From contig JBOZIK010000001.1 in assembly GCA_051453625.1 (NCBI GenBank), positions 8,134,384-8,173,485 on the forward strand: a stretch of DNA of 39,102 nucleotides, given 5' to 3'. The stretch comes from Welwitschia mirabilis. Lineage: Eukaryota. Under the pieces are notes generated by a model. The model saw only the letters and a list, made by a program, of their open reading frames with translations. It was not told the origin of the DNA and searched no databases. The translations under genes and the position numbers were made by a program. Of the stretch, positions 7,191 to 38,728 are shown one piece after another. Numbering within the stretch: the first letter of the stretch is position 1; each line of letters starts with the position of its first letter.

Positions 7191-8115
7191 ACTAGGGCAT
7201 TTATTTTAATAAAAACCCTTAATAAAAATGGTTATTAGGATGTTTTCATATGTAAAAATTCTAATTGAATTTTCATCTTTATTTTTAGGATGTGCATCCT
7301 TAGAAATACCTTAAATTATGTACCATAGAGTAAGCAAGTAGAGAATTTTTTAATAAATTCACTAAAATGGATTTAAATAGGGAATCTTTGGAGAAATGTT
7401 CTAAAATAGTGTTAATTAAATTTCATTTCTTAAAATCCATTGTAGTAGAAACTAAAATCATTAATTTAACTGTAAGTACAATAAAATAAATTTGTTTCTT
7501 TAAAGAAAGATGATACAAAAAGAAATGCAAATGCTTAAAAATGTAAAATAATTAAGATAAGTCATAATATCTAAAGAATTTTATGATACAAGCTTTAGCT
7601 TTACTCACCATGTACTACATAGATTTATCTTTGTTTAAGAATTTCATAGAATTATTTAGTTTTCCTTTATTATTTCAAATGATAAGTTTTCCAGACACTA
7701 GCAGCCATGATGCAAAGGGCAATAGTGATAAAGATATATTTTATGATATTTTTAGTAATGTACTAAAGCACTTCTATAGGGAGTTTATGCACCATTATCA
7801 TAAGAACTTATTATATCTTTAGAGAAGAGTGCTACTGATGTTGATAAGGAAGGTTTTAGGGTAAATGAGACTCCAAATTTCATTTCTAAAATAGTTCTAA
7901 TTAAAGTATAAAATGTTGAAGGAGGTCTTATATGTGGTTATCAGGTTAGTCTTTCAGGATAATGCCCAAAGAAAATGAATATAGTGATTCTCAAGATTGA
8001 AGCCCTAATGAGTAGTCGCTAAGATCTAGAATTACTTGCAGGTTCATGTCAATGTGGCCTCTAATTTTAGTGGATTTCTTAAAAACATTCTTCTTAATAG
8101 AGAATGACACTTGAT

Positions 8116-8367
8116 GCCAAAGTTTAGCTTAGATTTCTTATCTCAAATATTTTTCATGGCCTTATTGTAGGCCATTACAACTTCTTTGATGATATTGTAA
8201 GTTTTGAACCACAGTCTTTTACCTCTCCCCAGAGTTCCTAATTTTAGTAGTCTACTTTTCCCATGGCCTTTGCCTTATGTATCTTTACATATTCTTTCTC
8301 TTTCTTAGAGTGGACTTTAACGATTGCACATCCAAGTTTCTGACTACTAGAATTTTAGTGTTATGTT
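8116..8367 (-). pseudogene. AP2/ERF domain pseudogene fragment, copy 1 (ERF-VII-like)
   Basis: Minus translation RKRKNM..YIRQRPWEK*TTKIRNS, a 1-nt frameshift, then GKRLWFKTYNIIKEVVMAYNKAMKNI*DKKSKLNFG. Confidence 0.85.
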
Positions 8368-9203
8368 NNNNNNNNNNNNNNNNNNNNNNNNNNNNNNNNN
8401 NNNNNNNNNNNNNNNNNNNNNNNNNNNNNNNNNNNNNNNNNNNNNNNNNNNNNNNNNNNNNNNNNNNGGAATCTTTGGAGAAATGTTCTAAAATAGTGTT
8501 AATTAAATTTCATTTCTTAAAATCCATTGTAGTAGAAACTAAAACCATTAATTTCACTATAAATAAAATAAAGGAAATTTGTTTCTTTAAAAAAAGAGGA
8601 TACAAAAAGAATTGCAAATGCTTAAAAATGTAAAATGATTAAGATAAGTCATAATATCTATAGAATTTTATGATACAAGATTTAATTCTTTACTCACCAT
8701 GTACTACATAGATTTACCCTTGTTTAAGAACTTCATAGAATTATTTAGTTTTTCTTTGTTATTTCAAATGATAAGTTTTCCAGACACTGGTAGCCATGAT
8801 GCCAAGGGAAATCATGATAATGATATATTTGATGATATTTTTAGTAACCTACTAAAGCACTTCTAGAGGGAGTTTATGCACCATTATCATACGAACTTAT
8901 TATATCTTTAGGAAAGAGTGCTACTGGTGCTAATAAGAAAGGATTTAGGGTAAATGAACTCCAAATTTCATTTCTAAAATAGTTCTAATTAAATATTAAA
9001 ATGGTAAAGGAGGTCTTATATGTGGTTATCAGGTTAGTCTTTCAGGATAATGCCCAAAGAAAATGAATATAGTGATTATCAAGATTGAAGCCCTAATGAG
9101 TAGTCGCTAAGATCTAGAATTACTTGCAGGTTCATGTTCATGTGGCCTCTAATTTTAGTGGATTTCTTAAAAACATTCTTCTTAATAGATAATGACACTT
9201 GAT

Positions 9204-9460
9204 GAGGAAGTTCAACTTAGATTTCTTATCTCAAATATTTTTCATGGCCTTATTGTAGGTCATTGCAGCTTCTTTGATGATATTGTAAGTTTTGAACCAC
9301 ACTCTTTTACCTCTCCCAAAGTTCCTAATTTTAGTAGTCTACTTTCCCCATGCCCTTTGCCTTATGTATCTATACATATTCTTTCTCTTTCTTAGAGTGA
9401 ACTTTAACGATTGCACATCCAAGTTCCTGACTACTAGAATTTTAGTGTTATGTTTAGAGA
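9204..9460 (-). pseudogene. AP2/ERF domain pseudogene fragment, copy 2 (ERF-VII-like)
   Basis: 9392-9204 translates RKRKNMYRYIRQRAWGK*TTKIRNFGRGKRVWFKTYNIIKEAAMTYNKAMKNI*DKKSKLNFL. This is colinear without gaps to the ERF-VII consensus [63 protein letters not shown]. Two in-frame stops. Confidence 0.9.
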
Positions 9461-10473
9461 AAAGCTTAAATCTTTTTGATAATTAAAAAAAGCAAATAAT
9501 ATCTTTACTTAAGATATTATATTTCTTATTGTTTTATGCTACATATAAATTTTCCTTGCAGGGATATGTGTTTGTATGCATTACTTATTCTTTAAGAGCC
9601 ATTGTGTCTTTTCTTCTATTAAATAGATTCATTAGATAATAGAGAGAGAACTACATGTTGACCTTGATTAGTAAATAATTTTATGTGTATATACACTCTT
9701 TAGTTTTATTGCATGGTTTTAATTACTTAATATCTTTATTTATGTTGATCTCTTTCCTTATTTACATCTATTGAAGCTTTATACTTAAGCCCTTAAAATA
9801 ATTATCATTTATCTAATATAATTTCTTCTATAAATAAGTACTTAGAGCAATTATATATATATTAGAGTTTTTAAAGAGTGTAAATAATTAAAGATGATAA
9901 GGATTAATCCTATTATTAAATTTAAAACTTATAACATTTTGATGTACTTTTATCCTTGAAATTGTAGGTAGTTGTTATTAAAGAGCTTGATAATTTTATC
10001 TTTTGTTCTAATATAGAACTATGAGTAAGATATAATATTGGATGTTACTACTATTTTTCTATTATCTCATAATATTATTTATTATTAATTGTGATGTGAA
10101 TAAAGAGCTATAGCAATTTTAGAAAGTTTCTTTTTCTTTGGCCTTATCTTCCATTTATTTCATGAATACCTCTGAAATAATGGTAAATGACTTATAAACA
10201 TTAATAAGTTAAATAAAATACAAACCTTATAAAAGGTCTTATAGGAACTAACCAATGTTAAAATAGAACTGATTATTTGTCATATCTTTTGGATGATATG
10301 GTGGTTACCATTTATAGTGATAACTTTATAAGTTTTATATCAAAGAGAAACTAGTTCCTTATTCTATAGGTACATGATCGATATTGTTTGTTGGGTGTTG
10401 CACATGCTCTTAAATAAACTTAAATGAAATTATCAGTACTATCAAAAATATACTTAAAATTACTTTTATTTAC

Positions 10474-10627
10474 CTATGATGAAAAGGAAGGTTAGACATC
10501 CATTATTAGTGGATTTGACATGGGATTTGCCCTTGACATCCATAGATCCATCATCAACTACCAAGTGATGGTTCTCTCTTTCATGGTCTTTTTTTAAGAA
10601 TTTCCTCCACTGCTCAATTAAGTTCAT
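10474..10627 (-). pseudogene. Isolated first-exon-like fragment of an NRT1/PTR (NPF) transporter
   Basis: Open 51 codons MNLIEQWRKFLKKDHERENHHLVVDDGSMDVKGKSHVKSTNNGCLTFLFII(G), then a phase-1 GTAAAT donor. Resembles the NPF N-terminal D-G/S-S-V-D-x-K-G...T-G-x-W...F-I-I motif and its usual first-intron position. The ExxER exon is not found downstream. Confidence 0.55.
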
Positions 10628-12924
10628 GATAAATAAATCTGTTATTAATTATCCATTAGACCTTTAAAATTTTCTACAAGTCCATATTAGATACTAATCC
10701 TTTATTTAAAGTATTAGACTCTTATAAACATGGAAAAGCTTTATTCCATAGAAAGGAAAAATATTGGGCAAAAGATATGAAATTAAAAAAACTATTAATG
10801 ATTAAGATTTGCAAGTTTTCATTCAATGTTTTTTACTATTTTTCAAACATTAAAGTTAATTAATAAGCATCTACTTATGTTCTTAGACTTCTTTGAATAG
10901 CAAGGAAAACCATCACTATAATACACTTTTTATATCAAAAACCTTTAGTTTTGAGTCCTAGAAATTTGATTCAAGATTTCTCTCTTTATACCTTTTTTTA
11001 ATTTTTATTTTTTATGTGTGNNNNNNNNNNNNNNNNNNNNNNNNNNNNNNNNNNNNNNNNNNNNNNNNNNNNNNNNNNNNNNNNNNNNNNNNNNNNNNNN
11101 NNNNNNNNNNNNNNNNNNNNATTAGACCTTTAAAATTTTCTACAAGTCTATATTGGATACTAATACTTTATTTAAAGTATTACACTCTTGGAAATAGGGA
11201 AAAGCTTTATCCCATAGAAAGGAAAAATATTGGGCAGGGGATATGAACTTAAAGAAACTTTGAATGATCAAGATTTGCAGGAATCCATTCAATGTTTATC
11301 ACTATTTTTCAAACATTAAAGTTAATTAATAAACATTTACTTATGTTCTTAGACTTCTCTAAATAGCAAGAAAAACCATCACTATAATACACTTTCTATG
11401 TCAAAAACCTTTAATTTTGATTCCTAAAAATTTGATTCAAGATTTTTCTCTTTATACCGTTTTTAATTTTTATTTTTTATGTGTGTGAAAAACAAAAAGA
11501 AAGAGAGAGTAAAATTAGTTCAAATCTAGATCTATGAGTCCATGGTTAATATCACTCTTAATATCAAACTTGATATTCACATTTTGGATGTAAGCGAGAC
11601 ACTAGAAATGAAATGCTGTAAGCATTCTTAAATAGAAAACTTCATAAAGATTTACCTTGTATTGTACTTATTTTTTAATTTCTTTTTGTTCAAAGTCCTT
11701 ATGAAAGGTACAAGCTATTGTTTTCTTAGAACTAAAAACTACTGACTCATGATATACTTTATTCATGTTTCATTTTTTAAAGAGTTACTTTATGTAATAC
11801 TATTATGTTTCTAGTTTCATAGACTATTTTTGATCTTCTTACTTTTTAGTGTATTATTATATTCACTATCTACCTAGCATACTTCTTTGTGATTCATTTC
11901 TATAATACAATGAATTTTATTTAAGCATCCTACAAGGATACGCATGATATTCCTCTCCTTATTACTTATCCAAATTCCAAAATACTCATGCTACTAATAT
12001 ACATCTTCTAAATATATTCTTGACATATCACTTCTAAATCAATCATGATGAGGCATTCATTACATCTAGGATGATGATAATCTAATTAATAATACATATT
12101 TGAGTTACTTATATTTTTAGATTTTAGTTAATAAAGAAGTTTAAAACACTCAAACTATTTAGAAATGTTAAAAATGCACTTTGAAAGGTTAAATACAACT
12201 ATGAATCTCTTCAAATTCCAAACTTCTAAATGGTATTTGCCTAATTTATTATGTAAAATGTAGAAATTTAAATTACAATTTAAAAAACATCATTCATAGA
12301 GATATAATAAGAGCTATCTGACATGATTTTTTCTTATTTGTTAAGAGAATTTGAGCATAATTTTGGATCCACATCTCATAATAAAACTATAGATATTTCT
12401 TTCAAATGAATAATTAAAGTTTAGTATTCTTTAGACCTATTTTGTTGTGTATCATTTGTAAAGTTTGTAAAATATTCTAGATTCTTTAATGAGTAGCCTT
12501 AAAATGAAAAATTAGCAATTGGAAGTACCAAATTACTTGGAGATTTCGAATGTTTCATACCATGCCTTGGAAATGAAAATCCAAAATATCACCAAATTTT
12601 TAAATTAGATAAAAGGAGTTCTAATTAGTAATAGGTTGAATAAAAGTTGGTAATAGTAATGCATATCATGTCATGAAGATAATAATTTGTAATAAGTTAA
12701 ATCTCTATAGAAAAAGTGTATAACAACATGTATAAAATTCATGAAAAACCTTCACAATGATAGAATCAAGTTAATTATAAGATTATAATAATGCATAAGT
12801 CATAAAATATGAATACAAAAATTTTTATTCATACATCTAACTTTTGTATCCATAAAGGTTATTTATTTGTACATCTAATATTTGAATTGATATAGGAATA
12901 TCTAAAATGATTATAGTCTTATGT

Positions 12925-13290
12925 GGTTTGTAATCTTTGTTTACTTAGAAATGAGAGTAATTTTTTTTTTCTTTTATGCTTAGAGATCAAGAAAAAGATC
13001 AAACATGAAATATCTTTTGTGTTGTATTTTCTATTTCCTATTTTTATTTTTGTACACTTGTTATTTATCATTTCTTTATATATAAAAAAGTGGGTCAAGT
13101 TTATAACAATTGGTATTTGAGTTTTTGTTTGAGAGTTTTGGTGAAGTAGAAGTTTTTTTCCTTTATAGATGAAGATAATAGCTTCAATAGAAAAATTTTA
13201 TAGATTAAAATATGAGTTAAAGAACTAAAGGTAAAGGATGTATTATATGAGAAAAAGTTAGAAACTAAAGTTGTCTATTTAAGGATTAAC
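12925..13290 (+). mobile_element. Ty1/Copia 5' fragment (LTR end, PBS, start of gag)
   Basis: ...ATAACA-AT-TGGTATTTGAGT at 13103-13122 (tRNA-Met PBS TGGTATCAGAGC, decayed). Followed by IEKFYRLKYEL / LKVKDVLYEKKL, matching the gag IEKFDGxNFxxWKxKxxDxLxxK motif. Confidence 0.65.
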
Positions 13291-13424
13291 CATCTAGCTT
13301 AAATTAGGGATTTAATAAGTATTCCTTATTTCATTAATAACTTATCTATCATGAAAATGTAGAAGAAATAAATGTGAAAGAATCATTACATCCCTCATCA
13401 TTAGTTCATGAATCCACTGATGTA

Positions 13425-16400
13425 AGGGATAAGAGCTAAATGATTATGAATAGGTAAATAACCAAACATAGTTAAAGGCTTACCTTTAATTTCAAATAAT
13501 ATGATTATCTTATTTTTCTATTATTAATATTTGTAGGGCATATAAGAAGTATGAAGATGGTGTTAATAACTTTATACAATTTGTAAGTCATAATGTTAAC
13601 AATTCCCAAGGTATACTTTATCCATGTGTAAAATGCTGCAACACTTATTATCAACAACCAAATATAGGTTTAAGTACCTTTTATGTAAAAGAATGGNNNN
13701 NNNNNNNNNNNNNNNNNNNNNNNNNNNNNNNNNNNNNNNNNNNNNNNNNNNNNNNNNNNNNNNNNNNNNNNNNNNNNNNNNNNNNNNNNNNNNNNNTTAT
13801 CAACAACCAAATATAGGTTTAAGTACCTTTTATGTAAAAACATGGATCTTACCTACATGAATTGGATTATGCATAGGAAAACTTTAGAAGAATATTATGA
13901 TTAATCTAGTAGTAATAATATCTTACAAGATGACCTAGTTTCCATGGTTAGAGAACCCTTCATATACTTTAATAACAGTGAGCAATCATATGGAGAGATA
14001 AACACTAGAAATTTTTCAAACTATGATAATTTAGATGGTGATGTAGAAAATATAGAATATGATAATTAATAAGAGATGCTGAGAGTAATTATACCCTATT
14101 CACATTAAATATTTAAAGCTTTCTATCATTATAAAATTTCTTACCATTAAAGAAATGGGTGGATGATCAAATACAACATTTTCAATATTACTTAATCTCT
14201 TACATGACTCTTTTCTAGAAGATGATACAATTACAGGTTCTTATGATCAATTGTTAAAAAAAAAAAATCACTTCATTGTTTAAGTATGAACTATGATAAA
14301 ACACATGCGTGTCCTAATGACTATGTATTATATTGAAACAAGTATGGAAACAAAAAACAAATGTTCTCAGTGTGATGCATCTAGATAGATATTAACAAGT
14401 AGTTACAAGAAAATAAACTAGATAAAAAGTTACCAACCAAAGTATTGTAATATTTTCCATTAAGTTCAAGGATAAAAAGGCTTTATGCATCAACCAAAAT
14501 ATTAAAACATATGATATGATGTTTCTAAAGGTAGAGAGATCATAGAATAATGCAACATCCAATAGATTTGACCTCATAAAAGAATATTAATGAATCATAT
14601 GATGAATTTAAATTTGATCCTATACATGTAAGACATGATATTATGATAGATGGATTTAACCCTTTGGAAATACTTACCACTTCTTGTAGCTGTTATTTAA
14701 TTGTGATGATTGTTTATAACTTATCACCTTGGTTATGCATGAAAAGATCTTATTTAATGCTTNNNNNNNNNNNNNNNNNNNNNNNNNNNNNNNNNNNNNN
14801 NNNNNNNNNNNNNNNNNNNNNNNNNNNNNNNNNNNNNNNNNNNNNNNNNNNNNNNNNNNNNNATTTAAATTTGATCCTGGACATATAAGATGTGGTATTA
14901 TGATAGATGGATTTAACCCTTTGGGAATACTTACCACTTCTTGTAGCTGTTATTCAATTGTGATGATTGTTTATAACTTACCATCTTGGTTATGCATGAA
15001 AAGATCTTATTTAATGCTTTCTTTATTAATACCCATGCCTAGTAATTAAGTGAATATATTGATGTGTATCTACAACCTCTTATTGAAGAACTAAAGCCAC
15101 TATGACATGAAGGAGCAAAAGTTTTTGATATATTTAAGAAGGATTTCTTTACCATGAAAGCAGTGCTACTTTATATAATAAATGGCTTTCTAGCCTATGG
15201 AAACATTTTAGGATTAAGTACAAAGGGGAATAGCATGTCCCATATTTACTCATAAAATAAATCTATAATGGTTGCTTCATAGTAGAAAACAATACTACTA
15301 AGGGCATATAGTGTTGCTTAATAAGAATCATAGGTATAAGTGAATGAAGAGATCATTACATGAAAGAGTAGAACAAGAAAATGATTTCAAGCCATTAATA
15401 AGTGAAAAAATTATTAACATAGAGTTTACATGGAAAAAGTGCATTTATAATATCAAAAGAAGAAGACAAACGTCCCAAAAGTTGTAAGAATAAAAATCCA
15501 TTTAAAGGTAACTCAACCTATTAAATTTAAAAAGTCACAAAAGAAGTGTAAGGAAATTAACTTGTATGTTTCAAAAAGAGAGCTTAGTAGTGGATTAAAA
15601 AAGAAATAAATAGTATTTAATCTTCCATATTAGAAGGTAATAAAATTTTATGAGATGTTTTAAAAATAAATTGATTTACTTTCATNNNNNNNNNNNNNNN
15701 NNNNNNNNNNNNNNNNNNNNNNNNNNNNNNNNNNNNNNNNNNNNNNNNNNNNNNNNNNNNNNNNNNNNNNNNNNNNNNNNNNNNNCATTTTCTTTCATTT
15801 AATACATTTTTTATTTTTAAAACGTATACAAGATCATGATGTATGGTATAATTTGAATGTTATGCATATTAAAAAGAATGTATATGATATCCTATTAAGC
15901 ACTATCAGAAATATTAAAGAAAATTAAAAGAATAAGCTAAAAGCATGACTAGATCTCAAAGAACGAGGTATCAGAGATGAACTATCATCAATTATGCTAA
16001 ATGATGGTAAAAAGGAATTCCTTTTTATTACCAATTTTGTGATGTCAGTAAAGTAAAAGAATTATTTTCGTTATGATACTAGAGTTGAAACTTCTAGATG
16101 ATTATGGATGAAATATTCATAGTTATACCTTACAAAAGAACATAGACTTTCTAATCTTAAGAGTCATGACTACCATGTTCTTTTACAATAAGTTCTTTCT
16201 ATTGCTTTGTGTAATATACTTCCGTCCAACATGCAAAGAGGCTTTATTGCAAATAAATTAATATAAAAATACTAAAAGAACTAAAGTCAAGAATAAATAT
16301 CATACTTTCTGATCTTAAGAGAATATTTTCTTTATATTTCTTTGTTATCATGATACATCTACCTATTCATTTGGTATGAGAGGTTAGGATTTGTGGGCTT

Positions 16401-17760
16401 GTTTAATATTGAAGGATGTATCCTATATGAAGGTAATAAAAAAATTTTTTTTTAAAGTTTTATCATTTTAATAACTATTATATAATTATAATCTTTTAAC
16501 ATGTCTACCATTTAGATTCTTGAAAGTTTTAAAGGGCTATGTTAGAAATAGGAACATACCAGAGGGATTCATTTTAGAAGTATTTCTAGTAGAGGAGGCA
16601 TAAATTTTCTATATAAAATATATAATAAATATTAAAACCTTAGAAAATTAGTTAGAACATAATGAGGTTCTTGACAATGACTCTAGTGAATCATCTTTTC
16701 ATCTAATAGAAGATTAGTTGATGGTGCAAAGAGAATTGTATTAAATCAAATGAAAATTGAATAAGCACTTAAATATGTATTGTTTAATACCTCTTACATT
16801 GAGTCCTATATAATATTAGTGAATTAGAATTTTATTATTCTATTACTTTTGTATACATACTTAATTTTTCATGTGTACAATCAACATCTAGAAGAAATTC
16901 ATAGAGAGTATCTATGAATGAGAAAATCTCTACTACTTCAAATGCATATTTATTACTTTACCAGTTGGTTTGAATAACATGTAACAAATAATATCTTATC
17001 TATAAAGATATTACTTTTCTTATATAAGGTTATTAGTTTTCTTCACCTCCTACCTTTAAAAGATATATGTTTAAAGATATTTTTTGATGTTTTAGGTTAA
17101 CAAATTAAGGGAAGAAGGAATGCTTAATAAAAAAAATAAAAAGAAAAGNNNNNNNNNNNNNNNNNNNNNNNNNNNNNNNNNNNNNNNNNNNNNNNNNNNN
17201 NNNNNNNNNNNNNNNNNNNNNNNNNNNNNNNNNNNNNNNNNNNNNNNNNNNNNNNNNNNNNNNNNNNNNNNNNNNNNNNNNNNNNNNNNNNNNNNNNNNN
17301 NNNNNNNNNNNNNNNNNNNNNNNNNNNNNNNNNNNNNNNNNNTATGGTGTCTGAAAAGTTATAATTATATTGAAGAATAGTTACATATTCAATGTTATGA
17401 TCTCCAAATGTGCATGATTCAATGTTCTTCAATAAGATAACATCAAGAAGGATGATTATGATTTTACCTTACTTAACATAAGCAAATATCTTAGGAATGA
17501 TTATGAACACGATGAACCATTCATATTAGCTAGTTAGGCATAATTGGTTTTCTATACAAAAGACATTGCAAATCCTTCATAGAGAATTGTAGCATTATTT
17601 AAACCAAGACATATTTATGATAGGAGTGAAAATGAAGAGTGTTTTAAAGTAGAAGAAGAGCATCCATACATCATTTTGAACTCCTTATCAAGGAGAATGA
17701 TGTAGAAATTAAAGCATGAATTAGAATCATACAAGTTTAGAGGATACTATGATTGATGCT
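13425..17760 (+). mobile_element. CACTA (En/Spm) TnpD/TNP2 transposase pseudogene with introns
   Basis: DKS*MIMNR|intron|YEDGVNNFIQFV..YPCVKCCN, KTHACPNDYVLY ~14300, DGFNPLG and MIVYNLPSWLCMKRSYLMLSLLIP ~14906-15035, IDVYLQPLIEEL ~15060, LKSHDYHV ~16155, MIHLPIHLV, RMYP, LKGYVRNRNIPEG ~16530, DEPFILAS*A*LVFY ~17511. No terminal CACTA TIRs were recognised. Confidence 0.95.
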
Positions 17761-18151
17761 TTTAATTTGTGATCTCTACCTTTGCATTAGTATGCATGTA
17801 ATGAGATGATATACCTTTATGTTTACTTAATAGTATTAAACTAGTACTTATAAGAAGTACATGAAACTCTTATCTTAGAAATACTAAATTCTAGTTTGGT
17901 TTGCTATAAATAGACAGAATAGAGTATTCTTATCCCTTTCAAATCATGATATTTATAATAAATACTTTATCTTTGATAAAATATAATGAATGTCTTATAA
18001 GTATTTAATTAACCATTGTGCACAAAATGATATAGGCATGTCTCACATGTTTAAGCTTTACTTTATCATACATTTCAAAATGTCATGATTTGACTTTACT
18101 TATGTAATATTTATTAACAATGTGCTATAATTAGCATTTTTAAAATTATAA

Positions 18152-18780
18152 GGAGGAATGAAAAAGAGGAATAATGGGAGGCATGAAACCTTATAATAGT
18201 AATTGATTTCTTTCTAAGCATATAGTTTTTAATCATTTTTTACATGTGCAAGTATTAAGTTCTTTAAAGAAATATCATTTACTAATACATAGTTATTTCT
18301 CTAAGGTGTTCAAATTGCTAATAATTCTTCCTCTCAAGAATAATGAATATTCTATAACATCCTACATAAGAATAAATATTGAAAATTCATTAATTTATCA
18401 TTTATTTAATTTGTGATATTATGAATTTAATATGCCATAACTTGCAGGTGAAGCCAATAGTTCTAAATTACAAAAAAGAGAAAAATGAAAATGGCCAGAT
18501 CTAGCTAGACTTGGACCTTCGGAGAAGATAAAACTTAGTTGGAATAAAAAAGGTTAAGCAATTAATCCATATAGGAAACTATTATTATTCTATTGGAAAA
18601 AAATAGTTAGGGATAATAAAATTGAACCAAAAAATTATAAAGACTATAAAGGGTTTTAAAACCCAATAAACATATAAAAAATCATGACGACCATAAGACT
18701 TAAATGTATCATGCATAAAAAATGAAACTAGGCTAAATAAAAATTTCACTAGAAATTGAATGACTACATATAACAAAACT
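18152..18780 (+). mobile_element. Possible decayed CACTA second-gene (TnpA-like) exons
   Basis: Short AG/GT-bounded purine-rich segments directly downstream of TnpD, e.g. TTGCAG|GTGAAG ~18448 and KIKLSWNKKG*AI. The call is mainly positional inference. Confidence 0.35.
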
Positions 18781-20049
18781 TTTGATTTTATTTCTCATAC
18801 TTATCTCTCTTGACTAAAGTTTACACAAATTGATTAAACAAAAGAATTAAAACCTAGATCTGTGTAGCTTCTGAATTTGTTGTAGATGCCTGAGATGGGA
18901 CTATTTTGCAGCAGAATTTGATGTAGACAGAATGTAAGATCCTGAAGTAAATTTGTGCTTTATGGATCTTTTTGTGTATTATATAATGGTACTAAAGCTA
19001 GGAACAATCAGAACNNNNNNNNNNNNNNNNNNNNNNNNNNNNNNNNNNNNNNNNNNNNNNNNNNNNNNNNNNNNNNNNNNNNNNNNNNNNNNNNNNNNNN
19101 NNNNNNNNNNNNNNNNNNNNNNNNNNNNNNNNNNNNNNNNNNNNNNNNNNNNNNNNNNNNNNNNNNNNNNNNNNNNNNNNNNNNNNNNNNNNNNNNNNNN
19201 NNNNNNNNNNNNNNNNNNNNNNNNNNNNNNNNNNNNNNNNNNNNNNNNNNNNNNNNNNNNNNNNNNNNNNNNNNNNNNNNNNNNNNNNNNNNNNNNNNNN
19301 NNNNNNNNNNNNNNNNNNNNNNNNNNNNNNNNNNNNNNNNNNNNNNNNNNNNNNNNNNNNNNNNNNNNNNNNNNNNNNNNNNNNNNNNNNNNNNNNNNNN
19401 NNNNNNNNNNNNNNNNNNNNNNNNNNNNNNNNNNNNNNNNNNNNNNNNNNNNNNNNNNNNNNNNNNNNNNNNNNNNNNNNNNNNNNNNNNNNNNNNNNNN
19501 NNNNNNNNNNNNNNNNNNNNNNNNNNNNNNNNNNNNNNNNNNNNNNNNNNNNNNNNNNNNNNNNNNNNNNNNNNNNNNNNNNNNNNNNNNNNNNNNNNNN
19601 NNNNNNNNNNNNNNNNNNNNNNNNAAAGTAGAGCTTCTATTTTAACATCACCTCCTTGACTTTACTGAGAGAAAATGCCTCTTACATAGATTGTATGAAG
19701 CTTAATTATGGTAAGAATAAGGCTTTGGTGAGATTTTGTAGACCTATTATTGCATTCTAGATGATGTTAACTTAAAGAGATGAGATTTTGCTTATTGTCC
19801 TATTCTTCCATGATTGATTCTTATTAGTTTCTATTTTAGATCTTGACTACTTCTGCATTACTAATTTGAGAAGAATTCCTTCACCATTTTGTNNNNNNNN
19901 NNNNNNNNNNNNNNNNNNNNNNNNNNNNNNNNNNNNNNNNNNNNNNNNNNNNNNNNNNNNNNNNNNNNNNNNNNNNNNNNNNNNNNNNNNNNTTTTAGAT
20001 CTTGACTGCTTCTGCATTGCTAATTTGAGAAGAATTCCTTTATCATTTT

Positions 20050-20646
20050 GTATGATGTAAGCCCGAATTTCCCCAGACATCATTGTCATTCATTATGTTT
20101 ATGAATCCTAAAATGAAGAATGACCCCCCAGTCACTGGGAGGGTTAGAGGAGAGGAGACAAAATGGGAAGCCATTGCCATTAGGTTATAGACATTCATGA
20201 ATGAGGATGCTAGTGTAGTTGCAGTCAAAGTGGGGTAACCTGGATTGCTTGCTTTTAGACTACTACTATAGTCTATCATACTTCTCCATCATGTTCTCTA
20301 GGTCCTCATCAGTCATAACAGATATGAGGGCATCCGGATCCTCATTTGATAGCTCATACTTGATGCTCATACTAGCTAGAAATGTTCTAGAAATATTGCT
20401 GATAAGATCAAGATACATAATATTTCTTGAAATAGAAACTATTCTACTATCACTGCCTAGATAATAAAGCTGGTTGTCATGAGGTCTTGGCATGATCTTC
20501 CCTTCAAAGTTGCACATGAATCTCACTTTATTCGCACTTGGAATATTAATCCATTTAATTTAATTAACTAGAAATTCTAGATACATGCTCCTCCTAGTTA
20601 CTATAGATCTCAGGGATGAACCCACAGAATCTATGTAATCCATCAT
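20050..20646 (-). pseudogene. Plant PB1 (octicosapeptide/Phox/Bem1p) domain gene pseudogene, copy 1
   Basis: From ATG 20646: MMDYIDSVGSSLRS...(stop)...KVRFMCNFEGKIMPRPHDNQLYYLGSDSRIVSISRN...IKYELSNEDPDALISVMTDEDLENMMEKYDRL**. Matches the plant PB1 consensus KFMCSYGGKIxPRPHDNQLxYxGGxTxI...KYQLPxEDLDALISVTxDEDLExMMxEYDRL. Confidence 0.92.
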
Positions 20647-20856
20647 CACAAAACCATAAAATTTTCCCTTTCAAAAAAGGAAAAATGCTTGAACAACCCA
20701 AAATTCAAAAAACACCCATTGAAGACATACACAAAAGAAGAACCAAAATTCAAAAANNNNNNNNNNNNNNNNNNNNNNNNNNNNNNNNNNNNNNNNNNNN
20801 NNNNNNNNNNNNNNNNNNNNNNNNNNNNNNNNNNNNNNNNNNNNNNNNNNNNNNNN

Positions 20857-21321
20857 ATTAGGTTATAGGCGTTCATGAATGAGGATGCTAGTGTAGTTGT
20901 AGTCAAAGTGGGATAACCTAGATTGCTTGCTACTAGACTACTACTATAGTCTATCATACTCCTCCATCATGTTCTCTAGGTCCTCATCAGTAATAACAGA
21001 TAGGAGGGCATCCAGATCCTCATTTTATAGTTGATACTTAATTCTTATACTAGCTTCAAATGTTCTAGAAATATTACTGATAAGATCAAAATACATAATA
21101 TTTCTTGAAATAGAAAATATTCTATTGTCACTGCCTAGATAACAAAGCTAGTTATCATGAGGCCTTGGCATGATCTTTCCCTTCAAAGTTTCACATGAAT
21201 CTTACTTTGTCAACATTTGAATATTAATACATTTATTTTAATTGACTAGAAATTCTAAATACATGCTCCTCCTAGTTCCTATAAATCTCAGGTATGAACC
21301 CACAGAATCTGTGTAATCCAT
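20857..21321 (-). pseudogene. PB1-domain pseudogene, copy 2
   Basis: Diverged direct duplicate of copy 1 across a 100-N gap. It carries an extra frameshift before KVRFM and further stops (FM*, DN*). Confidence 0.88.
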
Positions 21322-23047
21322 TATCACACAACCATAAAATTTTCCCTTTCAAAAAAGGAAAAACCCTTGAATAACCCCAAATCTAAACAATACCCATTGA
21401 AGACATACACAGAAGAAGAACCCAAATTAAAAAAAAGGGGGCCTACAATAGCATAGGACAGGGTTAGATAAGAGGGTTCTCTAGATCTTTAAAAGCAATG
21501 GAGAAGGCAACACTGAAAACTTTCAGATGTATGCAATTTCAAACAGGCAAAGCTAAGGAATCATAAAAACAAACCTAAACCTACTTGACTAGATTCCAAA
21601 GCATAATGCTCTTGTGATTTGCATTGCTGCACTTTTGCTGTGCTTCCTTTCTATCTCATAAACTATTCACTATCCCTCACCTTCTTCTCTTTCAATCCCC
21701 TAGTGCCTTTACCATTACCTTTACCATTTAAATGCAGACTATCTTATGCTTCCATCTGGTCCATTCTTCTTCAATTGCCAATGATACAAAGTGAGGATTT
21801 ATAGATGAAGAAAGGATACTCTTCTCCTTTAAACTTTGTCAGTTGTAGGATGATATTTGGGACGAAAGAGGAAGGGAAGAGGAAACCAAGGTTTTAGAGG
21901 AAATCGCTATAAACCCCAGGCTTGAAAGTAGGTGTTGTTGAAGTGGCCTATGAATTTTTTATTGAGGATGATTATTGCTACCTTAGAAAATTAAGCCCAT
22001 GTTAGATTATGTTGTCTACACTACTCACTCTTGAAAATTTTACATAATTGTTATCTCAAAATGCTTAACTTCACCATTTGGGTTTTTAAAAATAATTAGA
22101 AAGATAATATGTCATGTATAANNNNNNNNNNNNNNNNNNNNNNNNNNNNNNNNNNNNNNNNNNNNNNNNNNNNNNNNNNNNNNNNNNNNNNNNNNNNNNN
22201 NNNNNNNNNNNNNNNNNNNNNGGACAAGGTAAAGGGTGAGAGGGAGAGGTAGAGAGGGAGGAAGGGAGAATTTCTTTCCTTAGTAAGAACAACCGTTTTT
22301 CTTTTTATTTTTAAAAAATTTGGAGAAGTGTAAATTACATGTTAAAAGCAAATATGTTCAAAAGTAAATTTTACAGAGGCTGGTGCATAACTGCATATTG
22401 GAGGATGATCACTAGCACAAACAATTCCATTAATAGAAGCAGATCTACATAATAGATCAATGTGATGACACTTTGTCTCTTTAAAATGCAAATAATTTCG
22501 ATGCATTTTATATAGTTGTCAATATTTTCTGTTGGCTGATGTTTACTATTGGTTTTCCCCGTTTTATGTTGGAGTTCATTTTATTATTTGTTCTTCTAGC
22601 ACCTAAGATGTTCATATCCAACTGTTCATTGTGGGATACTTTCAATCTGGTGCAACTTATTCCATGATTGCCTTGGGGTAATGTTATTTCTGTGACACTC
22701 AATTAAGAATTTAAGTGTAGAAGATTAAAGATCTCAAACTAATTAAGATTTTTGATAAGCTAACTAAGATCTTTAATATATGGTTACCTATGATGTAGTT
22801 GGGTTTCAATTTGATGTGATAGGTATTATTTATCACAAGATATGCATATCCTCAATGTGAATCAATGTATCATGAGGAGTATCATAATTTTTCTGTTAAT
22901 AAATTAGTTATGCTTAAATAATCCTTATTACTCGGAATTTAGACTTAATTGCCTGAGCTTGTGTTTACTTGAAGAGGGAAAACTGTTATATGATTTTGCT
23001 AACTAGTTTCTCCCAATATGTAACATGTTCTTGTCATTTTCATCTAG

Positions 23048-23348
23048 GATGTAATAGCTTGTGATGTCATCAATCCAGATGACATTGATGTTACATTTGA
23101 TTCTGTTGGAGGACTTGACAATGTTAAACGGTCTCTTTATGAACTAGTCATTTTGCCCATGCAAAGACCAGGGTTATTTTCCCATGGCAAACTTCTTGGG
23201 CCTCAGAAAGGAGTGTTGTTGTATGGTCCTCCTGGAACTGGGAAGACATTACTTGCAAAAGCAATAGCAAAGGAATCAGGTGCTGTTTTCATTAATGTGC
23301 GCATTGCAAGTCTCATGAGCAAATGGTTCGGTGATGCCCAAAAGCTTG
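23048..23348 (+). CDS. MSP1: Internal exon of an MSP1/ATAD1-family AAA+ ATPase (membrane protein dislocase; similar to Arabidopsis At4g27680/At5g53540)
   Basis: Pyrimidine tract + CATCTAG|GAT acceptor and CTTG|GTACGT donor. Open frame DVIACDVINPDDIDVTFDSVGGLDNVKRSLYELVILPMQRPGLFSHGKLLGPQKGVLLYGPPGTGKTLLAKAIAKESGAVFINVRIASLMSKWFGDAQKL with Walker A and the KWFG pore loop. Confidence 0.95.
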
Positions 23349-25555
23349 GTACGTAAACTAAGACTTGCCCTTTTAATGGAAGTTTTCATTAGTTCACACA
23401 AGTGCTGGTAGCAGTATTGCCATAACCTCTTGTTATCCATCTTCAGGTTTTTATGTTGATGCTAAATGCAAATTTTGATTATTCTAATTATCTAATTTTT
23501 TTTATGGCATTAGTTCTCATCTTTGTGGTAGCCACAATCACAAGACGAATTACTTATTGCATACTTTCTTTACTGTATCAGTTATTTGGATCCTAGAGAG
23601 TACATATAGATATCCCTTTCTTGCCAGTGCCCTGTGATCAAGTATGTAATTATGCTAGACTATAGTGTAGTGATTATTCATCAGAGGGCATTGCATTGAT
23701 AAATGAACTTGAATTACTTACAGGAAGACGACACTAGTGTCACAATGGCCACAATCATGATTATGCCCAACATTGTTACGGGCATGCAAACCGCAATCGG
23801 TCTTACAATAAACAAGTTGCTGTTGATTAAGGAAATTCAACTATCTAAATAATGATGTGGGCACATTCTAAAAAGGATTACCGCTTTTTTAGCCAATGGC
23901 AAATACGTTTTTGATTCACAGAGGTTTGGGGAAGTGACAAGAACACCTACAGGCTTTAGAGTATAGGCGTCTGATATAATAGAGAACAAGTAATCAACAA
24001 ACCTTGAAAATTGTGAAATTTAAATCAACATTAGTGTCATGCACTGATGATATGGAAACTGTAATCAGAAAGTACAGAAAGTACAGAAGGTTTGACATTG
24101 TGTAGCCTGTCTAGCCAATTTTTATGGGAAGCACAGCATAGAGAACCAAGTAATTCTTGAAAACACAAACTGACACAACAAGACATGCAGATTTTAAATT
24201 AATGCATAAACTCTATACCTACGATGCATAACATACGTTGCAATATGGCAAAACCCTCATCCCGTGCTACTTGCTGCCCTACCAATGGTGTCGTAGGTAT
24301 CCACAATTAAGTCATGTGTAAAATTATCTCTCTCATATAAAAATGTTATCACAGGTATGCACAATTAACTCATGCATAATATTATCCCCTCCACGCAGGT
24401 GCTGCAATTAACTTAGGAAGATGCTGCTGCCACAATTCACTCTTTATCTTCAAGCATCCAAGAACTGACTCTAGTTCCAAGGTAGTACCTTTGCATAAGT
24501 CATCTACACCTTTTTAGTCTAATTACAGTTTAAACTTCCCACAAAATGACTTTTAAAAGTCACTTTCATGACATCCAAATTCCCTTTCATGAAATATCCC
24601 TGACCTATCGTGGTGTCACATGGTAGAGATGGCAAACTCAATAATGATCTTTTTTGTGTATAGAATACTATTACACATTTCACCAATACCAAAATGAATT
24701 CAAATGACTATTAGATGCCATTAAAGATGAATAATATAGAAAACCAGCGTAATATGTATCCTTTCTATGGAATCATAAAATCAATCAGTGAACATCCTAT
24801 CATATTCAAAACAAGACACTTAAAACATTGATATTCATTTCAAATATGCAAAAAGCTAATTACATAAGCAATAAGCCAATGGAGTGTCTAAAATGTGAAA
24901 TGAAGTGTTAAAATCCAATTTACAATTGTTAAAACATTGCTCGGTAGACTATAATATGACATTTTGATGAGTTCTTAAATGCCAAAATGTTTCTTCCTAT
25001 TATCTCTTTCCTGCTTACTTTGACTCAGAAAGTTGTGTGACCCTACCATGTATTATGCATATATAACCAAGTTGACATCCTAAGCAGGTCAGTTTACTAT
25101 GTTGATTTGTTCCTAAAGTTAATTTTGTAATGCTCCTATAATAAAATTCATTGTATACGTGNNNNNNNNNNTGTTTTATTTTTTAAACGGCTTTTTTTGG
25201 CAAAGTGGAGTATCCTTTATAAACAAGTATGAAATGATACCTTAGCAAAAAGTGGGGAGCAAGCCCCCTTTGCAAGTCCAACAGGAGGAAAAACAACGAG
25301 GTCCAATGATACAAAAGGAAAACAAGAAAATGCTGGCTTCATGCAGATACAGACAAAATAAACGACAATAAAACTAGAGACATACCTAATGAAGCACGTA
25401 AAATTGTTTCCCATTGTAGAAAGTGTATAGTCACTATGATTTTTTGCAACCAACTTCCTTTCATACTCATGCTAGAGCATCATTTCTAGATTTTTCATTA
25501 TCACAATATTTTTGTCCCTTTGGTATTTTTGTCAGGGTGAATGTGAAGAGGACGT

Positions 25556-26747
25556 TGTTACAATAGAATCAAATCTTTAATTGTCTCATCTGTTCCTTGT
25601 TGTGATAACATTGGGTGTTATTTTGNNNNNNNNNNNNNNNNNNNNNNNNNNNNNNNNNNNNNNNNNNNNNNNNNNNNNNNNNNNNNNNNNNNNNNNNNNN
25701 NNNNNNNNNNNNNNNNNNNNNNNNNNNNNNNNNNNNNNNNNNNNNNNNNNNNNNNNNNNNNNNNNNNNNNNNNNNNNNNNNNNNNNNNNNNNNNNNNNNN
25801 NNNNNNNNNNNNNNNNNNNNNNNNNNNNNNNNNNNNNNNNNNNNNNNNNNNNNNNNNNNNNNNNNNNNNNNNNNNNNNNNNNNNNNNNNNNNNNNNNNNN
25901 NNNNNNNNNNNNNNNNNNNNNNNNNNNNNNNNNNNNNNNNNNNNNNNNNNNNNNNNNNNNNNNNNNNNNNNNNNNNNNNNNNNNNNNNNNNNNNNNNNNN
26001 NNNNNNNNNNNNNNNNNNNNNNNNNNNNNNNNNNNNNNNNNNNNNNNNNNNNNNNNNNNNNNNNNNNNNNNNNNNNNNNNNNNNNNNNNNNNNNNNNNNN
26101 NNNNNNNNNNNNNNNNNNNNNNNNNNNNNNNNNNNNNNNNNNNNNNNNNNNNNNNNNNNNNNNNNNNNNNNNNNNNNNNNNNNNNNNNNNNNNNNNNNNN
26201 NNNNNNNNNNNNNNNNNNNNNNNNNNNNNNNNNNNNNNNNNNNNNNNNNNNNNNNNNNNNNNNNNNNNNNNNNNNNNNNNNNNNNNNNNNNNNNNNNNNN
26301 NNNNNNNNNNNNNNNNAAATCTTTAATTGTCTCATTTGTTCCTTTTTGTGATAACATTGGGTGTTATTTTGGGGGGGTGGGGCGCGGAGGGGAGGGGAAG
26401 GTTTCCGCATGTTTTATCACTTGTTTGTATGGAGTTATTGAAAATTAATTGAAAGGGGTCAATGTTGGGTTATCCTAATGGTGTTTTAACCTTAGTTTTG
26501 TTCTAAAAAGGAATGTGTATTTGGTTGGGATTTGTGTGCATGTGTCTTTGCTTATCTTTAATGTTGATATCCAACTATTGAGGATGCTTGGTGTCCTTGA
26601 AATTTCTATTGATAGTGTGAGCTCCATAATGTTCCATCGATATAGGGTAGAAAATGTTCTGTTGGGAAGCCAAAAGTCTATTTTTATTCTCTTGTTTGCT
26701 ATGTTTATGTTGATCCTATTTAATTGTGAAAGGTAGATTCTATAATA
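25556..26747 (+). repeat. LTR-like repeat copy (gapped), related to 32957-34300 and 34468-34845
   Basis: Shares AAAT-TTAATT-TCTC-T-TGTTC, ATAACATTGG-TGTT, GAAAATTAATTGA-AGGG-TCAATGTTGGG and TGTTGAT--CCA-CTA-T-AGGA with the downstream copies. Starts TGTTA after a purine-rich run. Confidence 0.6.
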
Positions 26748-31555: not shown

Positions 31556-32992
31556 NNNNNNNNNNTACAGAAACCATGTATAAACTTTACCTGAATATTT
31601 CCAGTGTAAAGCACTCTTTTACCTGAATTGTTTTAGCTTTGGTAGCTTGTTTAAATCTGTAATTGCAACAACTAAGTTGTGACACGACTTTCTTGCATGG
31701 GAATTTTAAAGAGGAGATACACATGAATCAACTTGAATGGTTTACGAAATTTAAGTACCGGAATTATGTATGCAAGTTGAAGAAAACTTTGTATGGATTA
31801 AAATATGCTCCCAAACAGTGGTATAAGAAGTTTAATGCATTCATGATAAACCGACAATATAGTAGAAATAGCATGGATCACTATGTGTTTTTTTTTAAGG
31901 ACAATCTGAAGGCAAGGGTTGCATTCTTTTGTTGGATGTTAATAATATGCTTATTGTTGGAAGGGACATGATTCAAACTAATAGACTTAGGCTGAAATGA
32001 GAAATCAATTTGCCGTAAAAAGATTGGGGGCAGCAAAGCAAATTCTTGGCATGAAATATTAGGAATAGATGCATAAGCAAAGTGGGGCTAACTTAAGCTG
32101 ATTTTATAGGAAAGGTTTTGGAGCGTTTTGGTGTGCAAAATGCCAACCTGTGAAGACCGCTTTGGCTTCCCATTTTCGGCTGTTCAAATATGATTCTGCA
32201 GGTGCCAACAAAAGAAGTCGAGAGACTGAAGCATATCCCTAGATGGTAAGTGTTGGTCACTTCTGTGTGCCTTGATATGTATTCATCCTAATATTGCTTA
32301 TGCTGTTAGCATTGCTTGCAAGTTTATGCATAATTTTGGCTGGAATCTTTGGTTGGCTATAAGCTGGATTTTGAGATAGTTGAAGGCGCATGGTCCGCGA
32401 GATTATGCCTTGATGGAGGAAATTGAAGGGTCCATGGTTATTTGGATGCTAATTTTGCAGGGGATCGTGATAAAAGACATACAACGTACTATAATTTTGT
32501 CTTGAATGGTGAAGCAATCCATTGGCTATCAAGGCAATACCCTTTGGTAACTTTGTCCACCATTGAAGCAAATATGTGGTGTTGTTTGAAGGTTGCAAAG
32601 AGACGCTTTGGCTACGTGTTTTCCCTTGTTTACTTGGGCTGAAATAAGATGAATATCTTGTGTATCGTAAGAGCCAAGGTGCCTTCTTCTTGGTTAAGAA
32701 CCCTACATATCGTGGGAGGAATTAGCACATAGATACAAAGTTCGATTTTATTTTGGAAGTGGTGGACAACTTTATAAACATTTGGAAAATTGATACTGAG
32801 AAGAATGTGGCTGATTTCATTATGAGGATAATAGAAGTGGAGAAGCATAATTTTTGCAAGTAGCATTTTGGGTTAGCTACGATGTAAGGACTAGGCATTT
32901 GTATAGTGCATCTCTTCTTATTGTTTTGAAGGCTGGACGGCCTTTAAGGTGGGAATTGGTAGAATGAAATCAAATTGTTAATTCTCTTCTTT

Positions 32993-32994
<2 letters not shown>

Positions 32995-33045
<51 letters not shown>

Positions 33046-33775: not shown

Positions 33776-33843
<68 letters not shown>

Positions 33844-33850
33844 TGTGTGT
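32995..33850. repeat. Compound (CT)n(GT)n microsatellite spanning a gap
   Basis: Directly visible dinucleotide runs on both sides of the N run. Confidence 0.97.
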
Positions 33851-34467
33851 TTTGAAAATTAATTGAGAGGGTTCAATGTTGGGCCATCCTACTGGGCTTT
33901 TAACTTAATTTTTGTTAAAAACAGGATGAATGTCTGGTTCGGAGTGCTATGTGAGTATTTTGCTCATTTTAAGTGTTGGTGCCCAGCTAATAAGGACAAT
34001 GGGTCATCCTATTAGGGTCTTAACCCTCATTTTTGTTAAAAAGGGGAGGGATGTCTCGTTGGGAGTGGTGTGTGAGTATTTTGATTATTTTGAGTGTTGA
34101 TGCCCAGCTAATAAGGACAACTTGTGTCCTTGATGTTTCTGTCGAGAACAAATGCTCTACATTGTTTTGTGGATGTAGGGTAAAAATGACTTGAACCATG
34201 TAAATGTGTGTGTGCATGTGCTTGTGTGTGCACACATGCGCGCTTGGATGTTTCGTTTCTTGTTTGCTGTTCTTTATTTTTCTGTTGTGATTTTTCAATA
34301 GAGGCTTCTTGAACCTTTTATGCATTTCCTCGATGATGGTCGAGTGTGTTAGACCTTGAACTTGTTATGGACATTCTCCTCTAGTCTTTTACGGTAAATA
34401 GTTCCAGTTTCTTCAAAATCTAGATTTAGGGATGTGTTGTTAGGTTCTGCAATTACGCATGGAGAAC

Positions 34468-34845
34468 TTTTAGAATGAAGTCAAATTTTTAATTTGTCTC
34501 CTTTGTTCCTCTTTGTAATAACATTGGCTGTTTTACATGTAGCCTCTTGCGTTTTGTTATTCATTTGTATGTGGTTATTGAAATTAATTAAAAGGTATTG
34601 TTGGGTTACATGTTAGGGTTTTAACACTAATGTTTGTTATAAAAGGGGATGTATGTCTAGTCGGGAGACATCGGTGTAAGATTCCTTTGCTTATCTTGAG
34701 TGTTGATGCCTACCTATTGAGGATGGCTTATGTCATTGATGAGAAGAGCTTTGCATTGTTCCATAGAAGTAGGGTAGAAAGGGCCAATGTGTGTGTGTTT
34801 GCTCGCTGCCTTGTTTTTTCCGTTTTGTGCTATGGTATTTCAATA
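34468..34845 (+). repeat. Additional LTR-like copy in tandem with the Copia 3' LTR
   Basis: Starts TTTTAGAATGAAGTCAAAT (compare TGGTAGAATGAAATCAAAT at 32957) and ends TTTCAATA, as at 34300. Internal motifs are shared. Confidence 0.6.
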
Positions 34846-37438: not shown

Positions 37439-38728
37439 TTGAAAAGTTCTCATTTAAGACATGATAGGATTAACCTCTAGTTGAATGTCAAGACACTATC
37501 CTTCACCAGATCTTTGATCAAATATGCTATTTGCTAGTGGTATTTTCATTTCAAAATGAAGCATTTGTTCCCAAAAATTCTAAAATAACTTGCTTTTTGC
37601 TTTTCACCTTAACATAGTTCATATGGACTGTTTTTGGTACAGGGTCTCATAGATTCTATCATACATATAGTGGGTTGTATTTCCTGCTTTAACAAAACAT
37701 ACATGAGGTAGTTTAGATTCACTTAAATAAGTTTTGAGGCATCATTAAGAACTTTGTTTCTTCTCTCAGCTTACCCCTTTTGTTGAGGAGTCTTGAGATG
37801 GGGAAAAAAAATGAGGAAATATGTCATTTTTGTTATAGTATTGCTACAACTTACCAAACCCAAATTCTCCACTGTGATCTGATCGGAGAGTCATGATAGT
37901 CTACCTCTTTTTATTCTGTATCTTATTGGCAATCTTGACAAAGTGATAAAAAACCTTCTCATCTTTGTTACATAGATAAACCAACCCAATGAAAACTTCA
38001 AAAATCTTAAATAATAACAAAAGTAGCTCCTGTTATGAAGGGCTTCTTCTATGGGTGGGACCTATTAGAACCATGTGAAGATAAACCAACCCAATGAAAA
38101 CTTGAAAAATCTTAAATAATAACAAAAGTACCTCCTGTTATGAAGGGCTTCTTCTATGGGTGGGACCTATTAGAACCATGTGAAGAATATCCAATGGTCA
38201 ACCTGATGTAATGTCTTTCTTGCTGTTGGAATAAGTTTGTTTTGGTTACCCACTTACAAGCAGGACAAGAGTTTAAGTATTCAATTCAGGCACGCCTTAG
38301 ACTACCTCCTCATGAGAAATCTTCGTTAGATTTTTCTAGTTTAACAGGCCAAGTCTTCTATGTCAAAGGAAGCCCTCCACCACGTTATCCAAGTAATAAT
38401 CTTCATTTTGTGAATCAACATCTGCAGTTGGGCATAAATTTCCTCATCTCCTTCCAACTACAATGTTGTTAGTAATTTCATTAAATATTTTACATTTATG
38501 CTTAAGAGAACTTTGTTACCTTTGCCACTCATATGGGCTATGCTCAATGATTTATGTTTTAGCCCACTTACACTTAGAATGTCAGCTATTTTAGAATAAG
38601 AAACAATACCCTTAACAATGCTTTTTGCTTTTCTATTATCACGAAAGGATAATGCATGTCCCTTGTAATCTGCAAGATAGCAGAATCATGATCTATATCT
38701 AGTCATATCAGAAGAGCAACCATAGTCA
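37439..38728 (-). mobile_element. Degenerate Copia (SIRE/Maximus-like) protease-integrase region
   Basis: Minus translation DYGCSSDMTRYRS*F..YKGHALSFRDNRKAKSIVKG..SGLKHKSLSIAHMSGKG (compare DSGCSRHMTGD...GLKHNLLSISQLCDKG), L*HRRLG, CPAC, PLDILHMVLIGPT, LRSDHSGEF ~37890-37863. Confidence 0.85.
37974..38186. repeat. 105-bp tandem duplication within the integrase
   Basis: The unit AGATAAACCAACCC...CCATGTGA starts at 37974 and again at 38079. Two substitutions seen. Confidence 0.95.

Follow-up and report, generated by a model that had tools for sequence, protein, structure and literature searches.

A 39,102-nucleotide stretch of the Welwitschia mirabilis genome (contig JBOZIK010000001.1, positions 8,134,384 to 8,173,485; hereafter the window) carries, between about 7.3 and 21.4 kb, pieces of host genes on the minus strand and the remains of a CACTA transposase. 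An earlier note on this DNA had seen in the region a single large composite element, set within a host intron, that had captured fragments of three genes: an ERF-VII gene with its AP2 domain, the first exon of an NPF gene and a gene with a PB1 domain. We think it probable, on balance, that the region is instead old, silenced, repeat-rich DNA in a fragmented scaffold, in which a dead CACTA transposase and partial copies of two host genes, ERF-VII and PB1, both also dead, lie as separate debris. Since the homology of the PB1 piece stops at a donor-like site, with unrelated sequence beyond, and the breaks of the ERF piece fall within an exon, both would derive from copying of DNA, either through capture by a transposon or through patching during repair. 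Both pieces would then have decayed by deamination of methylated cytosines, and each would be present twice only through overlapping contig ends that were left unmerged at gaps of 100 N.

Two dead pieces of host genes

The closest intact relatives of the two pieces, P0062 for the ERF-VII piece (397 amino acids, aa; the best relative in a single stretch) and P0001 for the PB1 piece (814 aa), are both W. mirabilis transcripts in EukProt. In a tblastn search, aa 51-163 of P0062 align with 9482-9160 on the minus strand (E 1e-24), and aa 67-163 with 8362-8072 on the same strand. The first alignment marks copy 2 of the ERF-VII piece (9160-9482, minus), which spans aa ~51-163 of P0062 and holds a whole, if decayed, AP2 domain. 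The second marks copy 1 (8072-8362, minus), which carries a further frameshift and reaches the 100-N gap at 8368; in our reading, the contigs overlap at that gap without having been merged, and copy 1 is the other arm. When 9183-9458 (minus) is read through its stops, it matches the AP2 domain of AtERF1 (PDB 2gcc, residues 5-65 of 70, E 3.4e-9), and the AP2 read-through finds 3651 relatives at E<=0.001 in a library of 1.84 billion representatives. Pfam recognises AP2 below threshold in a 35-aa open reading frame (ORF; E 4.6e-4, 20.9 bits where the cut-off is 33.3), and gives no AP2 match at E<=0.01 on the 138-aa read-through.

The three closest single-stretch relatives read, P0062, P0065 and P0073, all begin with MCGGAIISDF; this start, or MCGGAI(I/L) more generally, is what we take to be the N-terminal hallmark of group VII ERFs. 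Since the relatives begin in this way, the ERF-VII label of the AP2 piece probably holds. The piece itself begins at aa ~51 of P0062, so the N-terminal motif lies outside it, and it has the lead-in RKRKNMYR in common with P0062. For the parts of P0062 outside aa 51-163, tblastn returned only noise (E 2.7-18). What remains of the gene is an internal piece of ~340 bp, cut inside an exon, presumably the second exon. The earlier description of it as a partial ERF-VII fragment on the minus strand therefore stands, on the evidence of 2gcc and P0062, but its span of 8116-9460 was inflated, because two copies of one piece flank a 100-N gap.

The PB1 piece has the same layout. Copy A (20236-20643, minus) starts from the ATG and corresponds to aa 1-139 of P0001 (70.5% identity, E 2e-52), and copy B (20905-21321, minus), which lies in the other arm of the pair 20179-20756 / 20857-21434, matches aa 1-142 at 62%. 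The Pfam PB1 domain (PF00564) is found at 20269-20559 on the minus strand (E 6.3e-12, 45.7 bits against a cut-off of 23.6, and 47.5 bits for the read-through). Copy A contains four in-frame stops, all of them C>T products, and copy B has these four plus three more. Near the end of the homology there is a donor-like site, AG/GTTAC, and the sequence beyond it is unrelated. Retroposition was considered as the origin of the piece and rejected, because the homology stops at the donor-like site and unrelated sequence follows. A comparison of the PB1 ORF with proteins of similar length, made for other truncated copies, gave no candidate, which is weak evidence. That the piece is a partial PB1 fragment on the minus strand was rightly noted; the extent claimed for it (20050-21321) is too long, since it takes in copies A and B of a single piece together with the 100-N gap between them.

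For the PB1 piece a different history is possible, although we are inclined to doubt it: it could be exon 1 of an in-situ pseudogene left by gene or genome duplication, with the CACTA relic and the rest inserted later downstream, and with its other exons either past a long intron outside the window or deleted. Homology that begins exactly at the ATG and finishes near an AG/GT donor-like site speaks for such a history, as does the position of the piece in a GC-richer block, 1.7 kb from a well-formed exon of an AAA ATPase (23048-23353). Also in its favor, introns of up to 500 kb were allowed in the gene predictions for Welwitschia, and transposable elements (TEs) reportedly occupy 69% of introns (PMC8275611). 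Against it, aa 143-814 of P0001 have no match in the window, not even in the 20 kb that lie downstream of the piece on the minus strand. An in-situ origin of the PB1 piece would be compatible with the DNA-level copying that we favor for the ERF piece.

The two pieces have decayed in one direction. Each was compared with its relative codon by codon, and the replaced residues that C>T/G>A changes alone could explain were counted against those that only the reverse changes could explain. In PB1 copy A the counts are 26 and 1 (38 replacements in total), in PB1 copy B 25 and 1 (51 in total), and in AP2 copy 2 26 and 2 (41 in total). The stops agree: all four in PB1 copy A (QQQ to TAG TAG TAG, and Q to TAA) and both in AP2 copy 2 (W to TAG, R to TGA) can be derived by C>T/G>A. 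The triplet of stops stands at aa 129-131 of P0001, a QQQ within QQQQQQ, and reads TAG TAG TAG in both PB1 arms. From this direction it follows that the fragments are the derived, dead copies and that the transcripts stand for the living genes. The pattern of replacement is as would be expected of dead DNA, long methylated, in a GC-poor genome. Against its nearest relative, the PB1 piece has 38 of 136 aligned residues replaced, versus 41 of 92 for the ERF piece. The two confirmed fragments offer a clean, small example of deamination-driven decay, with CAG CAG CAG turned into TAG TAG TAG.

Copies flanking the scaffold gaps

The doubling of both pieces is part of a wider pattern, found by comparing the window with itself and by a targeted alignment of the two flanks of each gap. 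At nine of the 11 gaps of exactly 100 N, the 49-985 bases before the gap recur after it at 90-96% identity. The left copy is flush with the gap in all nine cases; the right copy begins with the base that follows the gap in eight, and in the ninth it begins 72 bases further on. No flanking duplicate accompanies the gaps at 15686 and 22122. The ERF-VII piece lies in the longest pair described (7381-8367, 100 N, 8468-9454; 985 aligned bases, 93.7%), which is flush with both gap edges, and the PB1 piece in a pair of 90.3% identity (20179-20756, 100 N, 20857-21434). Two shorter pairs fall within the transposase relic (13648-13696 = 13797-13845, and 14606-14762 = 14863-15019); the remaining ones in the region are 10655-11020, 100 N, 11121-11485 (90.4%) and 19834-19892 = 19993-20051. 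In the self-comparison, the repeats in 7.3-21.4 kb are the gap-flanking pairs only, and outside such pairs the window has repeats only at 25.5-26.7 kb and 33-38 kb.

The copies are most likely unmerged, overlapping contig ends of one locus, because their edges follow the gap edges over lengths of 49-985 bases and no comparable pair is found away from the gaps. A further sign of doubling is that the Transposase_21 profile is matched twice (profile positions 14-74 and 23-81) across the gap at 14763. Differences between the arms, taken over all gaps together, number 136 transitions and 83 transversions, and they look like natural divergence rather than read error. The arms may come either from two haplotypes or from two near-identical copies of a repeat. 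False duplication from divergent haplotypes or contig overlaps is a described assembly error (PMC2864568, PMC9516828). As in such cases, a gap here has near-identical copies directly on both sides, and the apparent gene content is inflated; in contrast to them, the arms are 4-10% divergent, which is above what alleles would lead one to expect.

This divergence, with its natural-looking ratio of 136:83, and the three stops of PB1 copy B that are absent from copy A, would suit true tandem duplications, or paralogous repeat copies set side by side. We regard that alternative as unlikely. Copy edges coincide with gap edges at nine of 11 such gaps whatever the length of the copy (49-985 bases), no near-tandem pair lies away from the gaps in 7.3-21.4 kb, and divergent-haplotype false duplication is already on record as an assembly error (PMC2864568).

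Unmerged contig ends have a consequence for use of the assembly: the flanks of a 100-N gap are usually one locus written twice. Further windows probably hold similar false tandem duplications, and tandem copies, "decayed duplicates" and long fragments there should be discounted until checked. Over the whole window, the gaps with flush copies of 90-96% identity are those at 3608, 5785, 6604, 8368, 11021, 13697, 14763, 19893 and 20757 (and 25626).

The transposase relic and the case for a carrier element

The CACTA component of the earlier account is well founded. A broken CACTA (En/Spm) transposase of the TnpD type occupies 13505-16600 on the plus strand, opposite to the gene pieces. Its domains lie in the order expected of TnpD, in separate broken ORFs: Transpos_assoc at 13505-13696 (Pfam E 4e-8), Transposase_21 at 14580-15252 (E 1.5e-17, 6.8e-15 and 5.3e-8) and DUF4218 at 16257-16600 (E 2.2e-7, with a second ORF at E 3e-5 and 24.3 bits, under the cut-off of 27 bits). 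We take these three domains together to be the marks of a CACTA TnpD. Three 100-N gaps lie inside the relic, two of them with flanking duplicates, and part of Transposase_21 appears twice through the duplicate 14606-14762 = 14863-15019. A Pfam scan of 111 ORFs of at least 35 aa found no other TE protein domain at 7-22 kb, whether TnpA-type, MULE, Helitron or retroelement; with this length limit, decayed fragments in shorter ORFs may have escaped.

The third gene piece of the earlier account, the NPF exon 1, has found no support. The candidate (10474-10627, minus) is an ORF of 51 codons that runs from an ATG at 10627 to a donor-like site, GGTAAAT. It has no Pfam match, no homologue in a word-indexed protein search and no match in the ESM Atlas, and no NRT1/POT chain in PDB is returned for it even at E<=10. 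The Pfam model PTR2 may not span the N-terminus of NPF proteins, which weakens the Pfam negative. With a GC content of 0.37 versus 0.23 in the adjoining sequence, the ORF may be a bit of coding DNA.

A single large composite element is unlikely: no termini were found, no repeat links the sides of the region, and three gaps and a step in GC precede the PB1 piece. Among inverted repeats in 1-25161 the longest has 42 nt at 71%, with no long terminal inverted repeats (TIRs) of the MULE kind, and none of the longest 25 of 199 inverted pairs looks like termini. The CACTA-type terminus motif CACTACAA has two occurrences in the window (889 and 27987), both outside the region and no more than chance would give. 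Neither the repeat searches nor a sensitive self-comparison of the whole window found a repeat, direct or inverted, that joins the two sides. Helitron_like_N and PIF1 gave no match among 111 + 131 ORFs, and Helitron termini were not searched for. As to distance, the scaffold gaps between the relic and the PB1 piece (17149-17342, 194 N; 19015-19624, 610 N; and 19893-19992, 100 N) leave, within 17149-19992, only the scaffolding to place the two side by side. The common strand adds little, since with only two verified pieces it is a 1-in-2 event.

That AP2, NPF, CACTA relic and PB1 all belong to one such element, whether Pack-type, Helitron or other, we consider very improbable. In its favor, the minus strand is common to both verified pieces and to the NPF-like ORF, and two of the three run from an ATG to a donor-like site, matching a bias of capture toward first and second exons reported in a survey (PMC13477047). 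The 4-10% divergence of the arms could also mean that reads of more than one genomic copy were perhaps assembled. These arguments have to be set against the failure to find termini of any class, or Helitron or MULE domains among the scanned ORFs, the NPF identity left blank by the word-indexed search, the ESM Atlas and PDB, and the three gaps and compositional step that set PB1 apart. The pieces also differ in their share of replaced residues from the nearest relative (38/136 for PB1, 41/92 for ERF), and in the same survey two or more fragments occur in only 13.68% of fragment-bearing TEs on average (PMC13477047).

A smaller cargo is easier to imagine, though we still think it rather unlikely: the CACTA element would carry the ERF-VII piece, perhaps together with the NPF-like ORF, as antisense cargo between its 5' terminus and the transposase gene, and PB1 would be unrelated. 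Both ends of the ERF piece are breaks within a presumed single exon (P0062 aa 51-163), as capture would leave them more readily than the decay of a pseudogene in situ. The piece lies 3-4 kb upstream of TnpD, on contigs much like those of the relic (GC 0.29-0.33 and an observed/expected CpG ratio, CpG o/e, of 0.10-0.13, vs 0.27 and 0.12). Host-fragment cargo is also known for CACTA elements (PMC6379663, PMC8903248). On the other side, two scaffold gaps separate the ERF piece from TnpD, and upstream of 13505 neither a CACTA terminus nor a subterminal repeat array was found.

Several points weigh against separate debris as the best account, and they should be stated together. P0001 and P0062 may be close paralogues instead of the true parents. 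The absence of CACTA termini is weak evidence, because decay could make short termini unrecognisable. Three coding-like bumps in GC on one strand within ~13 kb, two of them starting from an ATG, give the region what could be the look of a capturing element. Finally, a divergence of 4-10% between arms is much for two alleles, and paralogous copies of a repeat, meaning a multi-copy carrier, would fit it also; a multi-copy element may be compatible with the data. In its fullest form, the divergent arms would be reads from different genomic copies of an old CACTA-derived, multi-copy gnetophyte carrier that took up the ERF-VII piece and the first exons of an NPF and a PB1 gene in one orientation, was amplified and then decayed, a history that we find quite improbable.

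How does separate debris compare with known systems? Pack-type elements are non-autonomous and multi-copy, with recognisable TIRs and a 3-bp target-site duplication. Here, unlike in them, a transposase relic lies between the fragments and TIRs were not found, and by these two marks the locus fails as a Pack-TYPE element. Maize Helitrons that bear gene fragments hold several unrelated ones in one orientation. Unrelated fragments in one orientation are seen here as well, but no RepHel domain is present among the scanned ORFs and the verified fragments are two. What the locus does share with Pack-CACTA elements, described in Arabidopsis (PMC6379663), and with Pack-TYPE elements at large (PMC8903248), is the presence of host gene fragments near CACTA-type sequence.

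The nearest likeness is to the captured fragments of gymnosperms. A survey of 23 vascular plants that includes W. mirabilis reports that capture of gene fragments by TEs is widespread and more ancient in gymnosperms, that it favors first and second exons, that it involves a mean of 481,821 TEs per conifer genome, and that host TEs with two or more fragments are on average only 13.68% (PMC13477047). The ERF and PB1 pieces fit this background, PB1 as a first exon and ERF as what is expected to be a second exon. They resemble the surveyed fragments, as there described, in being partial, non-functional copies of host exons in methylated, TE-rich DNA, and differ from them in that no carrier element is delimited here, so that for these pieces "captured" is a conclusion rather than an observation. 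Dead pieces of genes are already known from the TE-rich DNA of gymnosperms, and the locus is ordinary. Its biological weight is small, such fragments being already counted in hundreds of thousands in the survey (PMC13477047).

Composition and neighbouring features

GC per kb in the window is mostly 0.21-0.43, and the four bins at 0.09-0.19 contain the longest runs of N. There are 21 such runs in all, 11 of them with exactly 100 N. Over the region discussed above, CpG o/e is 0.08-0.16 and GC 0.23-0.29; at PB1 the GC steps up from 0.23-0.29 to 0.32-0.36, and rightward CpG o/e is 0.29-0.45. The low values of the region are consistent with the description of the Welwitschia genome as ~29% GC and shaped by long-term deamination (PMC8275611). 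A word search of sequencing runs with 7300-17148 gave partial matches in 12 rows from 3 studies, the best with 0.53 of the sampled words and no RNA run among those listed, and no conclusion was drawn from it.

The window has one intact host exon, 102 codons of an AAA+ ATPase at 23048-23353 on the plus strand, CDC48/MSP1-like (PDB E 1.5e-44), with a GC of 0.42. It is flanked by a polypyrimidine-AG acceptor and a GTACGT donor. As regards the host intron that the earlier account supposed around the region, no partner AAA exon was found on the plus strand at 21.4-31 kb, among 137 ORFs of at least 22 aa; the exon may stand alone, or the introns of its gene may be long.

Further features lie in the right part of the window. 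In its GC-richer sequence an ORF for a reverse transcriptase of the Ty1/copia type lies at 31663-31968 on the plus strand (Pfam RVT_2, E 1.2e-12). Perfect (TC)25 runs at 32995-33045 and 33776-33826 stand on either side of a 730-N gap, which is probably inside a single long TC microsatellite. A repeat family of ~120-190 bp, with copies 70-88% similar, is present several times (26411-26656, 33836-34188 and 34470-34741), some of the copies in tandem (33880-33999 / 34000-34120). A 105-bp unit occurs as two tandem copies of 98% identity at 37974-38186, with no gap adjoining.

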